Shown piece by piece: positions 569 through 7,762 of a stretch of 11,709 nucleotides of DNA. How positions within the stretch are numbered: position 1 is the stretch's first letter; each line of letters starts with the position of its first letter. Made by a program: the position numbers and the translations under genes. Under the pieces are notes generated by a model. The model had not been told where the DNA came from, ran no database searches, and saw nothing but the letters and a program-made list of their open reading frames with translations. The stretch is from positions 1 through 11,709 of the IMG/VR virus record IMGVR_UViG_2548876944_000019; one strand, 5' to 3'. The stretch is from a virus (lineage: Duplodnaviria > Heunggongvirae > Uroviricota > Caudoviricetes).

Positions 569-1414
569 GTGAATAAAAATCCCTGGGATATTCCAGCATG
601 GCACGCTCTGGGCCGAGAAGCATCTTTAGTTACACAGCTCATTGGTTCTGGGGCAACAGCCATAGGTAAAGCCAATTATGCAGACAAAATAGGTGAATAT
701 TACACAGCATTTTTTGGGCTTTCTGTAGGTTTTGAGAGACTTGCTAAACTAATACTTGTTGCGCACTATGCCATTGAACACAAAGGGAAAATGCCTGACG
801 AGAATATTGTAAGAAAATTTGGACATAAGCTCATTGAATTAACCAACGAGGTTGATAGCATTTCTAAAAAAATGCAACTATCTCTGAGATATTCACGTCC
901 TACACATAAAATTACCTACAAAATACTTGAATGTTTAGATTCCTTTGCTGATGCCCGACGGGGACGTTACGCAAATTTCTCCTCATTAAGCAGCCCCAAT
1001 TTAACCAATAATGAACCTATTAATAAATGGTGGGGAGAAGTAGCCGAGAGTATCCTTGAAAAACATTATTATTATACAGTTGAACAAAGACGTGTTGAAG
1101 AAAATGCTAGGTTTATCAATGCCACTCTTTCACCGTATACAACGGTCATGTATATGAATGAAAGTACCAACATTATGCAAGACCTTATATCAGCCTCCAT
1201 CCGTACTGGACAAAATACCATTGTTCAAAAGTGGGGAAGATTCTATTCTCTTAGCATCGCTCGTTGGCTTGCCACAGTATTAACAGAACTGTCTGATATA
1301 GCTTCTCATAAATATGGAATAATTAGTTTTTATGGCCTTAGTGAACATTGTTGCAGTTATATAGTTGAAGATAGTTTTTTAAAAAACAGAAAAATATGGC
1401 CACTTCGCCAATAG
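569..1414 (+). CDS. Hypothetical protein (281 aa), candidate accessory or defence cargo gene
   Basis: GTG start at 569 preceded by AAGGA at 554-558; stop TAG at 1412-1414. AT-rich relative to the tail genes. No hydrophobic membrane segments noticed. No family recognised by eye; the only weak hint is one R-x5-H pattern (RYSRPTH). Confidence 0.6.
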   Translation: MNKNPWDIPAWHALGREASLVTQLIGSGATAIGKANYADKIGEYYTAFFGLSVGFERLAKLILVAHYAIEHKGKMPDENIVRKFGHKLIELTNEVDSISKKMQLSLRYSRPTHKITYKILECLDSFADARRGRYANFSSLSSPNLTNNEPINKWWGEVAESILEKHYYYTVEQRRVEENARFINATLSPYTTVMYMNESTNIMQDLISASIRTGQNTIVQKWGRFYSLSIARWLATVLTELSDIASHKYGIISFYGLSEHCCSYIVEDSFLKNRKIWPLRQ

Positions 1415-1418
1415 TTAA

Positions 1419-1733
1419 CTAGAAAATCTGCATAAGGGGGAGAAATCCCCCACCTGTAATAACATCACTACTAAAATTAACACCTCGTTCGCGCAACTCC
1501 TCTACCAGCACGACAAGATGCCGCATACTGCGCCCCAGTCGGTCCAGTTTCCAGACCACCAGCGTGTCACCTGCCGATAATGTCCTGAGCAGCTTTTTCA
1601 GTCCTGGTCTGTCGGACTTTGTACCGCTTATCTTGTCTTCAAAAATCAGCTCACATCCTGCACAGTTCAGCGCATTACGTTGTAGATCTGTGTTCTGGTC
1701 ATTTGTTGACACACGTACATAGCCAATAAGCAT
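1419..1733 (-). pseudogene. pin: Truncated serine DNA invertase (Din family, Pin/Gin/Hin/Cin-like); catalytic N-terminal domain only
   Basis: N-terminus MLIGYVRVSTNDQNTDLQRNAL...VVWKLDRLGRS...LRERGVNF matches the resolvase/invertase catalytic domain as I recall it, with the catalytic Ser in the RVST motif. After residue 87 (nt about 1473) the sequence becomes unrelated (SSDVITGGGFLPLMQIF) and stops at 104 aa. Full-length Din invertases are about 180-190 aa and end in an HTH DNA-binding domain. Confidence 0.85.
1436..1451. terminator. GC stem-loop (GGGGGA-GAAA-TCCCCC), possible terminator at the junction of convergent genes
   Basis: 6-bp perfect stem with a GAAA loop, 22 nt after the stop of the 281-aa ORF and inside the non-native 3' tail of the truncated invertase ORF. 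The plus strand lacks a U-tract after it; the minus strand has a partial T-rich run (TTATGCAGATTTTCT). Confidence 0.3.
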
Positions 1734-1787
1734 GAGAAATAACCCTGTAAAAATCCGGGATCATGCCATCTGAGCCGAATAACTGCA

Positions 1788-1813
1788 TTTTCTAAAAGGT
1801 TGGTTTGGGAGAA
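1788..1813. other. Left inversion crossover site (gix/pix/hix-like, 26 bp), core TT at 1800-1801
   Basis: TTTTCTAAAAGG TT GGTTTGGGAGAA. The reverse complement (TTCTCCCAAACC AA CCTTTTAGAAAA) resembles the Din-family site pattern TTCxxxxAAACC-AA-GGTTTxxGAxAA recalled from hix/gix. It lies 55 bp upstream of the invertase start, as in Mu and e14. Confidence 0.6.
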
Positions 1814-2293
1814 GGCTCTGCATTACCTGTTGGTGTCCCTGTTCCGTGGCCTTCAGCCACCCCGCCGACAGGCTGGCTGAAATGCAACGGTGCGGCTTTT
1901 TCTGCTGAAGAATACCCGGAACTGGCAAAGGCTTACCCGACAAATAAATTGCCTGATTTACGCGGTGAGTTTATTCGTGGCTGGGATGACGGACGTGGAG
2001 TGGATAACGGAAGGGGATTATTAACGCTTCAGGACGGTGCGATTGTCAGTCATAACCACTATTGGGGAATCTGGACTTCACGAACTAACGACCAGACTCT
2101 GGGAAGTTTTTCAGGCACCACGATTTTAAAACAAATCACGCCCCTGTCTCCGGCCATTGACTTCGATAATTACCAAATTCCCAACCCGGCTATTACAGAG
2201 GGTGGTGTTGTTGCGGCAACGACTAAACCTGCAGGTGCGAATGAAACACGCCCACGAAATGTCGCTTTTAACTATATTGTGAGGGCTGCATAA
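1796..2293 (+). CDS. Alternative tail-fibre C-terminal (receptor-binding) segment, Sv'-like, without its own start codon
   Basis: The frame opens immediately after the TAA at 1793-1795. It has no ATG; the ORF track start at 1805 is TTG with a weak SD. It carries a tail-collar-like motif (GWLKCNGAAFSAEEYPELAKAYP). The stop TAA at 2291-2293 overlaps the ATG of the downstream Tfa gene. Confidence 0.7.
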   Translation, partial: KVGLGEGSALPVGVPVPWPSATPPTGWLKCNGAAFSAEEYPELAKAYPTNKLPDLRGEFIRGWDDGRGVDNGRGLLTLQDGAIVSHNHYWGIWTSRTNDQTLGSFSGTTILKQITPLSPAIDFDNYQIPNPAITEGGVVAATTKPAGANETRPRNVAFNYIVRAA

Positions 2294-2895
2294 TGAATAA
2301 CGCAGAATTAAACAGTGAATTAATTGCCACTATGGCAGGAGAAATTACTGTTTATAACTTTGACGTCATGAGTCGGGAGTATATTTCAGCTTCAACTGAA
2401 TATCTTGCTGTTGGTGTCGGCATTCCGGCATATTCCTGTTTAGATGCTCCAGGCACCTACAAAGCTGGTTATGCAATCTGCCGCTCTGCAGATTTTAACT
2501 CATGGGAATATGTACCAGACCATCGCGGTGAAATCGTCTATAACACCGAAACGGGAGACGCCAAAGAAATCACAACTCCGGGTGATTACCCCGAAAAAAC
2601 AACCACTATCGCCCCGTTAACGCCATACGATAAATGGGATGGTGAGAAATGGGTGACGGATACTGAGACACAGCATAGCGCCGCAGTAGACGCGGCAGAA
2701 GCACAACGTCAGTCACTGATTGATACTGCAATGGCTTCCATTAGTCTGATTCAACTGAAATTGCAGGCCGGGCGGAAGCTGATGCAGGCAGAGACCACCC
2801 GACTTAACACTGTGCTGGATTACATTGACGCGGTGACGGCAACAGATACCAGTACCGCGCCGGATGTCATCTGGCCTGAACTGCCGGAGGAGTAG
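2293..2895 (+). CDS. Tail-fibre assembly protein (Tfa/U'-type chaperone) paired with the alternative fibre tip
   Basis: 200 aa, coupled to the upstream Sv' frame by a TAATG overlap. The C-terminus (LDYIDAVTATDTSTAPDVIWPELPEE) is the conserved Tfa C-terminal motif. It sits convergent to the other Tfa gene. Confidence 0.8.
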   Translation: MNNAELNSELIATMAGEITVYNFDVMSREYISASTEYLAVGVGIPAYSCLDAPGTYKAGYAICRSADFNSWEYVPDHRGEIVYNTETGDAKEITTPGDYPEKTTTIAPLTPYDKWDGEKWVTDTETQHSAAVDAAEAQRQSLIDTAMASISLIQLKLQAGRKLMQAETTRLNTVLDYIDAVTATDTSTAPDVIWPELPEE

Positions 2896-3313
2896 GCCAT
2901 TCAATATCTGGCGCACTGGAAGTATCGACCAGTTCCAGTGCGTCCAGATAATCCAGCCACAAATTATATTGCGCCAGTTCGTCACCTTTCAGACGACCAA
3001 TAGCGGCTTTACCGGGCCACTGCTTACTATTGATATAATAGTTAGCCTGCTCAATACGGGACCTTTTTTCGGCGTCAGCAGTTCTAACAAGTTCTTCGTG
3101 AGTCGGTTTAGGTTCATCTACCCATTCAGGGAAGCCATCATTCCCTGCTGCACGTATCTTGCCATCCGGTGCATTTTCTGCTTTCCAGGAGATAAATCCG
3201 TCCTCATCAAAATCGACTCCCTCATCAGGCCATTGCCCGCTTGCCAGGTAGCTATCCTTAAGGGAGTAAGGGAAAAATTCGTTTGTAACTGCTGAGTATC
3301 TGTATTTGGTCAT
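2867..3313 (-). CDS. Tail-fibre assembly protein (Tfa/U-type chaperone) for the currently expressed fibre
   Basis: 148 aa, immediately downstream of the fibre gene (fibre stop codon 3316-3318, ATG at 3313). The C-terminus (LWLDYLDALELVDTSSAPDIEWPTPP) is the conserved Tfa motif. Confidence 0.85.
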   Translation of the reverse strand: MTKYRYSAVTNEFFPYSLKDSYLASGQWPDEGVDFDEDGFISWKAENAPDGKIRAAGNDGFPEWVDEPKPTHEELVRTADAEKRSRIEQANYYINSKQWPGKAAIGRLKGDELAQYNLWLDYLDALELVDTSSAPDIEWPTPPAVQAR

Positions 3314-3315
3314 AT

Positions 3316-3987
3316 TTATTTCCCTATGGCTATCCAGGCAATTTCTGCTCCTGGAGTGCTCCAGTTGGCAATTCGGATTGTTGAAAGATCAGCTGACGAC
3401 ACGCCAACTGGTTTTGAAGGTGAGGGATCTGAACCCCAGAACGAAGCAAGAACAATATAGCCTGAGGTAGTAAAAGGGATTGGCAGCGTCCTTACCGCAA
3501 TCTGTCCTGCCGCCATGGTTGTCCTCCCGCTCTGAATAATTGTCCCGTCTGGAAACTTTACCCACCCACTACCACTGGTCCATGCAGACATGTCTGGTAG
3601 TTGGTTAGCACCTGTTCCGACATCTCGTTTCGCCGCTTCGCCCAAACCAAGATTTGAGAGGGCCGTTTTCACCGTGCCATCCGATTTGATATCACCAAAC
3701 GGATTCTTGCGGCTCAGGTATTCAACAGCAAACCCCGATCCCAGCAATTCAACAAAACCGGGCAGATCACCATTATCAAGCACATCCCGTTGCGTTTTGT
3801 CACTTACAAACTGGGCCAGAGCTGCAGCAATAAAGCTGGCCTGCCGAATAACCTTATTGACTTGCGCACTGGATGCTTTCCCTGCTGTAAATCCGGATAA
3901 AAGCGCAGGCAACGCTTCCCATTCCTCCTGCGACATAACATTGGCATTTTTACCCGTTGCGAATGCTTTAAAGTCATTTTTTGCCAT
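3316..3987 (-). CDS. Tail-fibre protein (constant N-terminal part fused to the currently oriented variable C-terminal part)
   Basis: The ATG at 3987-3985 overlaps the TGA of the upstream gene (ATGA), so it is preferred over the in-frame ATG at 4005 given in the ORF track. The right crossover site lies in frame inside it (ALSNLGLGE). It is followed by a Tfa gene. Confidence 0.8.
3637..3662. other. Right inversion crossover site (inverted relative to the left site), core AA at 3649-3650
   Basis: TTCGCCCAAACC AA GATTTGAGAGGG. Its reverse complement matches the left site at 13 of 14 positions across core plus inner half (TTGGTTTGGG[C/A]GAA). It lies inside the tail-fibre gene at the constant/variable junction. 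Confidence 0.6.
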
Positions 3988-4667
3988 CAGAGTAATACTC
4001 CCCATGCCCCTACATCAAAACCACTGATGAATTCGTTATCCATATCAAAACCAAAAAATTTTGAACCTTCCGATGGGGTTTCCACCGAAGGTGTTTCAAT
4101 GCCACCCGCCCACACCCCGGCGGCTTTTACTGTGAGATATCCCTGTTTAATTGCAGCAATTAACTCACGCGATACATCTGAAATATCAGTATCAGGAAAG
4201 ACCCAGACCGATATCGTCATGTCCTGGTTATCGACAATCTGCATTCGCAGCCCGGATCCTGCTGTTGCCGCGTCAAGAATTGCCGGAAGCGAATCATTCC
4301 GTCCGTCCCAGTTATTAATCGCAATCTTCGCTTTAAGAATGACACGATAAGTTTCATCGCTGAGATACATGTATCCAGAATCAGGATCATATGGCCCCTG
4401 CCATACCCCCTGATCATATCCAAGCCCGTCGGTATCCCAGCTGAAATAGACACCTGAGATAGGCTGGCTGACAACACGGCTACGTCCGATCCACAATCCC
4501 AGAATGTCAAGTTGCACACCAACCGCAGAGTCAATATCAAATGCAGTAATCAGCCCTCTGGTGGCAGCCGCAACATCAATAAGTGGCCGGGTCATCAGAT
4601 CAACATGCGCAAGAAATTTAGGTTTGGTGGCGTGGTAGTTCGTGATTAGTTCGGTGTATTTGCTCAT
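3987..4667 (-). CDS. Baseplate/tail protein, gpI-like (Mu gp48 / P2 gpI position)
   Basis: 226 aa; sits between the gpJ-like gene and the tail fibre; ATGA overlaps at both ends. Assigned by position and size, not by a recognised motif. Confidence 0.6.
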
Positions 4668-7036: not shown

Positions 7037-7762
7037 TCAGTTTATAAGCCCCATCTTACCGGCGCTTCGATAGTTAATTACATCGCCTGAAGAGCCGCAA
7101 GGCACAGCTACAGTCGACATTTTGACAAATCCTTTACCGCCCTGCTTTTGGCATAAAGTGGCATGCATTTTTGCTAAACGCGCAGCATGGCCAAAATCAA
7201 TTTTGGTTCCGTAAGTTGAATCTCGTAGAGCTGCTTTTTTTGCAATTCCGGTAATATTTTTGTCTTTAATTACAGATGCAAACAAACTCAAATCATTTCC
7301 AATTTGATTGAAGCAAGTACGATTAATATCAACATCGGCATACGCTGAAATGCGTTTGCAATCTGAGATCTGAGAAAGCACAGATGTGTTAACTAGTTGC
7401 AAATTTAATTTGTAGTCACCGACATAGGTATAAACTTTGTTAGGGTCCGTGGTTCCCGGATAACGAGTTACGAATGGAATGCTGTTGTACGCATCTCGCA
7501 AAGATTCTGCCCCCTTACTTGTAAGCTCGTTCCCAACACCAGCAACGATAACCTCTGGATGTGAAACTTCAAATTGAGACTTTTCTTCGCGCTGTATTTG
7601 AAGCCTGCTTTTCTGGCTCTCCTCAACTTGCTTATCGTACGCTTGTTTTTCTTCATTTTTTTGGGATAGCCATTTTTCCTGCGCTTTAGCACCATTAGGA
7701 TCCCAACTACATGAAGTTAAAAAAAGAGAAAATACGATTGTGGTTATCGCAAGCCTGCTCAC
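7037..7762 (-). CDS. Predicted outer-membrane lipoprotein (241 aa), moron inserted in the baseplate operon
   Basis: GTG start at 7762 with GAGG 9 nt upstream. Signal peptide ends in lipobox LTSC with Ser at +2. A charged linker (KAQEKWLSQKNEEKQAYDKQVEESQK...) is followed by a four-Cys globular region. The gene is visibly AT-richer than the flanking tail genes and is followed by its own terminator. Confidence 0.75.
   Translation of the reverse strand: MSRLAITTIVFSLFLTSCSWDPNGAKAQEKWLSQKNEEKQAYDKQVEESQKSRLQIQREEKSQFEVSHPEVIVAGVGNELTSKGAESLRDAYNSIPFVTRYPGTTDPNKVYTYVGDYKLNLQLVNTSVLSQISDCKRISAYADVDINRTCFNQIGNDLSLFASVIKDKNITGIAKKAALRDSTYGTKIDFGHAARLAKMHATLCQKQGGKGFVKMSTVAVPCGSSGDVINYRSAGKMGLIN

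Follow-up and report, generated by a model that had tools for sequence, protein, structure and literature searches.

Overlapping convergent tail-fibre assembly genes and their palindrome in a Pin/e14-type invertible segment

Genes and features of the invertible segment

The window, by which is meant the whole stretch of 11,709 nucleotides of tailed-phage DNA that was analysed, carries a prophage tail module on the minus strand. The list of open reading frames (ORFs) and the Pfam matches together identify genes for tape measure, Dit-like, plug, hub, spike, Baseplate_J and DUF2612 proteins. The module terminates in a fibre gene (3316-4005) followed by a Tfa chaperone gene (2867-3313). Opposite these, the plus strand carries a fibre C-terminal module without a promoter (1805-2293) together with another Tfa gene (2293-2895). 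An ORF of 241 amino acids (7037-7762, minus strand) with a lipoprotein-type signal (…LFLTSCSW…) is situated between the genes for the baseplate hub and the spike. Nothing was found for it in Pfam, PADLOC or NCBIfam, and it is likely to be a moron inserted into the tail operon.

The left crossover repeat (1800-1815, plus strand) agrees in all of its 16 nt with the e14 P-segment repeat given in PMC12529663, TTGGTTTGGGAGAAGG. It forms an inverted repeat with the right crossover repeat (3635-3650, minus strand), which has two mismatches and is located within the fibre gene that is expressed. The window thus has two matches, where 0.01 would be expected by chance. The expressed tail-fibre gene (3316-4005, minus strand; PF21882 Gp53-like_C) crosses the right repeat in frame, with a constant N-terminus outside the segment and a variable C-terminal part inside it. 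The silent alternative fibre module (1805-2293, plus strand; PF07484 Collar, E 8e-16) begins inside the left crossover site and is therefore without an N-terminal part of its own. Two features of the Din family of segments are present, namely the inverted pair of flanking crossover sites and the two fibre C-terminal modules in opposite orientations, each with its own Tfa gene. Since the e14 crossover repeat is found once exactly and once, inverted, almost exactly, the locus, about 1.85 kb long, belongs to the invertible host-range segments of the Pin/e14 type (P segment). In a related locus, L058, it is the TfaE-type pair that is joined to the long fibre gene, and the invertase lies beside the TfaP-type side; the orientation is the reverse of that in the window.

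Tfa proteins have a conserved C-terminal domain and a variable fibre-binding N-domain (PMC9608196). The Tfa gene in the silent orientation is of the TfaE type (2293-2895, plus strand) and encodes 200 amino acids ending in WPELPEE, while the one in the expressed orientation is of the TfaP type (2867-3313, minus strand) and encodes 148 amino acids ending in WPTPPAVQAR. Both belong to PF02413 (Caudo_TAP), with E 5e-30 and 5e-29 and with 104.8 and 101.6 bits, respectively, against a Pfam gathering cut-off of 22.1. The pair is homologous across the last 81 residues (36% identity, E 2e-13). The TfaE-type gene has 89.6% nucleotide identity to the tfaE region of K-12.

The segment is adjoined by a truncated gene for a Pin-like serine invertase (1419-1733, minus strand; 104 amino acids), which encodes an N-terminal resolvase domain only (PF00239 Resolvase, E 2e-30, residues 3-88). 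Nucleotide homology to pinE, compared in four relatives, ends at about 1467-1473, so the DNA-binding C-terminal part of the invertase is missing. The segment may consequently be frozen unless the invertase of another prophage acts in trans; inversion of the e14 segment by the trans-acting Pin proteins PinQ and PinR has been reported (PMC12529663). The DNA of the 3' half of the invertase gene is replaced by an ORF of 281 amino acids (569-1414, plus strand) with no family match in Pfam, PADLOC or NCBIfam. In relatives the slot beside pin is occupied by mcrA (K-12), a gene for a DUF262 protein (L060) or one for a GIY-YIG protein (L061), and because the slot varies in this way the position of the ORF looks like a variable cargo or defence slot.

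Geometry and distribution of the gene overlap

The two Tfa genes overlap tail to tail by 29 bp (2867-2895), as given by the coordinates of their ORFs. The overlap had been described in the initial annotation, and the C-terminal peptides and nucleotide strings quoted there are all present in the sequence. The WPxxP codons of the two genes interlock in a Trp-to-Trp core of 28 nt, TGGCCTG...CCGG...TAGGCCA (2872-2899), in which the final Pro codons (CCG) of both genes meet as CCGG (2884-2887). The Trp-to-Trp distance was 28 nt in each of the 22 distinct overlap cores compared, which have the form TGGCCT[G/A]nnnnn(C)CGGnnnnnTAGGCCA. In this lineage the two genes are packed in a single register, TGG CCT Gnn nnn CCG Gnn nnn TAG GCC A.

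The short-tailed gene stops at a TAG that is complementary to its partner's CCT (Pro) together with the first base (A) of the Thr codon that follows in W-P-T. An overlap of 20 bp results when base 7 of the core is A: a mirror-image TAG is then formed for the partner, and both tails are WPxxPxx followed by the stop. With G at this position, as in the window, the partner's stop is lost, three codons are added and the overlap extends to 29 bp. The 20-bp and 29-bp forms of the junction differ by this one base, A to G at core position 7. The added codons of the partner, ..Q-A-R/S/N, are the antisense of I-W-P in the first gene, and the ..QAR tail found in the window, including its stop, corresponds to the I-W-P-E codons of the first gene read in antisense.

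A survey of 262 loci from genome and viral collections gave 88 distinct convergent-Tfa junction DNAs. The 29-bp overlap was found in 74 of them, the 20-bp overlap in four and a gap of 26-29 bp in five, the rest being degraded or wider. The 29-bp overlap is annotated in the e14 tfaP/tfaE pair of K-12 (1208517-1208545, RefSeq), in phage pro483 and in five further E. coli records with differing partner modules. When 5426 complete E. coli genomes were searched, 2615 gave a match to window positions 2500-3300, in one case at 100%. The overlap arrangement is thus already known: it is the annotated e14 junction, ordinary, and present in about half of the complete E. coli genomes. The paper on e14 inversion makes no mention of the Tfa gene overlap (PMC12529663).

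Two further records were noted. One (L041, NZ_VLXZ01000124.1) is a 314-bp contig with a coverage of 1.2, assigned to the Bacillaceae (Alkalicoccobacillus), in which the TfaE-type C-terminus is 93% identical to that of the window; it is probably E. coli contamination of the Alkalicoccobacillus assembly. The other (H42, NZ_CP126934.1, 1485108-1489232) is the homologous region of an E. coli strain, listed with three Tfa genes and an IS200/IS605 element (tnpA and a TnpB-family gene), and an insertion sequence appears to have landed in a cassette of this kind.

The palindrome and its proposed roles as a structured RNA and in exchange

The ends of the two genes form an imperfect palindrome (2815-2956) of two 72-nt arms about 2885/2886 with 57% complementarity. 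When all centres in the window were scanned, the 41 complementary positions out of 72 ranked first (mean 18.1, sd 3.8; next best 33). No exact run between the arms is longer than 9 nt, and a repeat search of the window detected only an outer 18-nt piece (2814-2831 with 2940-2957, 83%). An alignment of the two genes by codons, beginning at L-D-Y and ending with the final Pro, has identity at 14 of 24 residues and 41 of 72 nucleotides. As a null, the non-overlapping parts of both genes were synonymously recoded 1000 times according to the window's own codon usage, with the shared 31 nt kept fixed; the recoded sequences scored 39.9 +/- 2.3 and the observed sequence, over the same span, scored 40. 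Since recoded genes give equal complementarity, the homologous peptides account for the palindrome, which is fully explained as a nucleotide pattern by two homologous Caudo_TAP C-termini on opposite strands.

The initial annotation had derived the inverted repeat from the conserved Tfa C-terminal motifs, and this derivation is borne out by the recoding null. The inverted similarity that it expected is far above the background of the window but does not go beyond what the shared peptides lead one to expect. The palindrome was also correctly placed in the invertible segment, but not at its exact centre, as it is centred about 160 bp to the right of the segment midpoint at about 2725.

That the palindrome folds in RNA and serves as a bidirectional transcription terminator between the convergent units, as was also suggested, is highly improbable. 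A terminator is to be expected at the junction because the corresponding site carries a terminator hairpin in relatives of the gap type (Mu, P1, Mixta L036, Pantoea L038 and Edwardsiella L052). The Tfa stops of these relatives are 26-29 bp apart, and nearly the whole of the gap is taken up by a G+C-rich hairpin that resembles a terminator and has A- and T-runs on its flanks (TAAAAGGCCCGCAAAGCGGGCTTTATTTT is an example). The gaps lie at 2004-2031 in the Mu locus (L005), 6320-6347 in P1 (L006), 4089-4116 in L036, 4092-4117 in L038 and 1171-1199 in L052; the terminator scan picks up the gap hairpin of L036 on both strands and that of Mu on one, and the P1 record annotates no feature there. A strong fold of the junction was likewise obtained when dinucleotide shuffles were used for comparison, with z -5.5 and -6.1 for the RNA of 2815-2960 and z -7.1 for the DNA fold. 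These z-scores were dropped, as shuffling is the wrong null for coding DNA, and synonymous recoding was used instead. Against such protein-preserving recodings the fold is unremarkable on the plus strand (z -1.2, p 0.12) and marginal on the minus strand (z -1.7, p 0.044), so that the folding proposed for 2815-2960 holds in the first comparison but not in the second. The long stem would be only 57% paired, with its 5' arm under translation. A scan of 1300-4300 for intrinsic terminators, with the Mu and Mixta gaps detected as positive control, gave none at 2800-2960, and at the junction no T-run follows any predicted stem on either strand. The Rfam 15 covariance search of 2400-3400, both strands, gave no match up to E = 1. 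The terminator reading was rejected on the absence of T-runs and a known RNA family on the Rfam result. Junctions with an overlap have lost the terminator hairpin that lies between the genes in segments of the Mu type.

A smaller fold in the right arm gives rise to a related but separate explanation. A local hairpin at 2905-2950, of 7 + 10 bp with one bulge and a loop of 11 nt, is contained in the coding sequence of the TfaP-type gene; it starts 10 nt past the TfaE-type stop codon and has a stem formed by the codons of Y-L-D-A-L-E with those of T-S-S-A-P-D-I. This 17-bp hairpin could itself be selected, for instance as a 3'-end stabiliser or as a barrier to antisense read-through that replaces the lost terminator. 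Its fold was matched by just 1-2% of synonymous recodings (z -2.8, window's own codon usage), the hairpin having been picked from about 26 overlapping windows in the first gene (63 over both genes). In statistics that ignore shared ancestry and the effects of G+C at third positions, 93% of the hairpin cells are paired in 35 distinct homologues, with four pairs changed on both sides and a covariation score that was reached in none of 500 shuffles. The same reservation applies to 32 diverged WLDYLDALE-type sequences, found with a degenerate pattern of that peptide in which the wobble bases were left free, which contain 374 Watson-Crick pairs where recoding gives 300.9 +/- 9.4, and to the wobble-wobble covariation of three pairs (p 0.005, 0.053 and 0.08). 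Two homologues outside a convergent overlap lack the hairpin and have downstream hairpins of their own instead, but it is kept in L064 and L065, which are without an overlapping partner. The outer stem is, moreover, uncompensated in the diverged members and a U-tract is absent after the stem. The asymmetry of G-U versus C-A pairs, tried as an indicator of the strand, was not decisive (26 against 13, with one event contributing 10). Selection on the hairpin at synonymous sites is thus suggestive only, and on the balance of these observations we consider it unlikely. Somewhat less likely again is the particular form in which, at junctions of the overlap type, the TfaP-type coding hairpin would be kept by synonymous-site selection because it forms or stabilises the 3' end of the partner transcript or blocks antisense transcription towards the invertase. 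If that form were true, part of the conserved ...LDALE..TSSAPD... peptide would be constrained by RNA as well as by protein.

Codon-level palindromes were also seen in other Tfa families. The peptide K-A-V-D-x-S-T-A, found in L062, L139 (left Tfa gene) and L047, is such a palindrome (GCn GTn GA / TCn ACn GC), and in L062 and L139 its codons form a perfect 9-bp hairpin, AGCCGTCGA-loop-TCGACGGCT. The A-V-D-x-S-T-A palindrome was represented by 8 distinct sequences, too few for a test of wobble pairing.

Homologous exchange had been proposed as well, with the inverted repeat as substrate either between the arms, giving a swap of C-terminal tails, or between phages, giving a joint in the palindrome. 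The Tfa and fibre modules are indeed mosaic, with many partner N-domains joined to one junction. About 12 of 60 sampled E. coli alignments terminate within 2852-2946, the 89 unique loci have seven boundaries on the right and five on the left that are within the palindrome arms, and in Kluyvera L008 and Escherichia L014 another Tfa body is joined at ...VDTS. However, when a boundary is taken as the end of ungapped similarity to the window, the right boundaries lie at 3040-3080 in 73 of 88 cases and the left ones mainly at about 2600 and at 2220-2380. These clusters correspond to junctions of N- and C-domains and to gene borders, and only about 8% of the boundaries of similarity blocks are inside the palindrome; 60 evenly spread E. 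coli matches gave the same pattern as the 89 unique loci. The arms are 57% identical and share no more than 9 consecutive bases, and such identity is well below the requirement for RecA-dependent exchange in E. coli. The nucleotide similarity of the palindrome is at the level imposed by the peptides, so there is no sign of conversion between the arms. Exchange from arm to arm was rejected, as no swapped-tail genes were found among about 180 junction-bearing genes classified, neither TfaE-type bodies with the long tail nor TfaP-type bodies with WPELPEx. The proposal as a whole is improbable, to about the same degree as the particular form of hairpin selection described above. The mosaic structure expected from a comparison of Tfa modules is present, but its joints are mostly at the N/C domain junctions and few are in the palindrome, a pattern consistent with the published modular build of Tfa (PMC9608196). 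Exchange at the palindrome is, as far as these boundaries record it, a minority event.

Interpretation and comparison with known systems

The structure is very probably the junction of the alternative Tfa genes in a Pin/e14-type cassette, with the palindrome as a by-product of paralogous C-termini. The Tfa chaperones are paralogues with a common conserved C-terminal domain ending in ...D-T-S-x-A-P-D-I-x-W-P-x-x-P. Because the genes are convergent, each strand carries this motif once, and the imperfect palindrome arises from that alone. The overlap is compact dual coding, inherited as a unit and carrying no separate signal, and we infer that the junction is without a regulatory role of its own. 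Since the segment terminator of the Mu type is missing, late transcripts of the expressed fibre-Tfa pair probably read on into the antisense of the silent pair. Such read-through would continue towards the invertase gene, which is on the same strand as the expressed pair.

Two observations count against the by-product explanation. The fold of the minus strand is marginally above the coding null, and the hairpin at 2905-2950 exceeds what the peptides require and has some compensatory changes. This excess pairing and these changes make some nucleotide-level selection in the right arm possible.

As a discovery the junction is small, being part of the long-known arrangement of the e14 P segment that is found in roughly half of the sequenced E. 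coli genomes. The analysis shows that strong z-scores for palindromes or folds in convergent paralogous genes should be judged by a synonymous-recoding null and not by a shuffle null. Seen against the Mu and P1 segments, those of the Pin/e14 type have the intergenic terminator replaced by a fixed 28-nt interlock of two WPxxP motifs, from which transcription is predicted to run on through the silent half in the direction of pin. The conserved block of 450 bp, consisting of the two C-terminal domains with variable N-domains flanking them, marks the exchange sites of tail-fibre host-range cassettes and bears on the engineering of fibre and chaperone swaps.

Among the closest known systems is the e14 P segment of E. 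coli K-12 (stfP-tfaP / tfaE-stfE, pinE), which has the same gene order, crossover repeat and 29-bp tfaP/tfaE overlap as the window. The junction core differs by one base, and the tails are alike, WPELPE[A/E] and WPTPPAVQAR, each followed by the stop. Unlike in e14, the cassette in the window stands behind a Pam3-like simple myovirus baseplate module (DUF2612, Baseplate_J, Dit-like, plug gp18) and the invertase gene is truncated. The TfaP-type N-terminal domain and the fibre tips also differ, and similarity to K-12 ends at about window position 3043.

The G segment of Mu (S-U / U'-S', gin) and the C segment of P1 (cin) are switches of the same Din family. They too have two convergent pairs of fibre and Caudo_TAP genes and an invertase gene that adjoins the segment. 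In contrast to the Tfa genes of the window, U and U' do not overlap but leave a gap of 28 bp between their stop codons; the G+C-rich hairpin of this gap (AAGGCCCGatagCGGGCCTT), bordered by A- and T-runs, is absent in the window.

The 28-nt core TGGCCT.....CCGG.....TAGGCCA is shared with a Citrobacter locus (L047) and three viral contigs (L144, L225 and L238). These differ from the window in having A as base 7 and a symmetric overlap of 20 bp, with both TAG stops inside the W-P-T codons of the partner.

The P2-like Peduovirus pro483 has 92% nucleotide identity to window positions 1473-3055, a similarity that spans the invertase, the fibre tip, the TfaE-type gene and the C-terminal third of the partner Tfa, and its 29-bp overlap is identical. 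It differs from the window in its P2-like backbone, in another N-terminal domain of the partner Tfa and in a full-length invertase gene of 594 nt.
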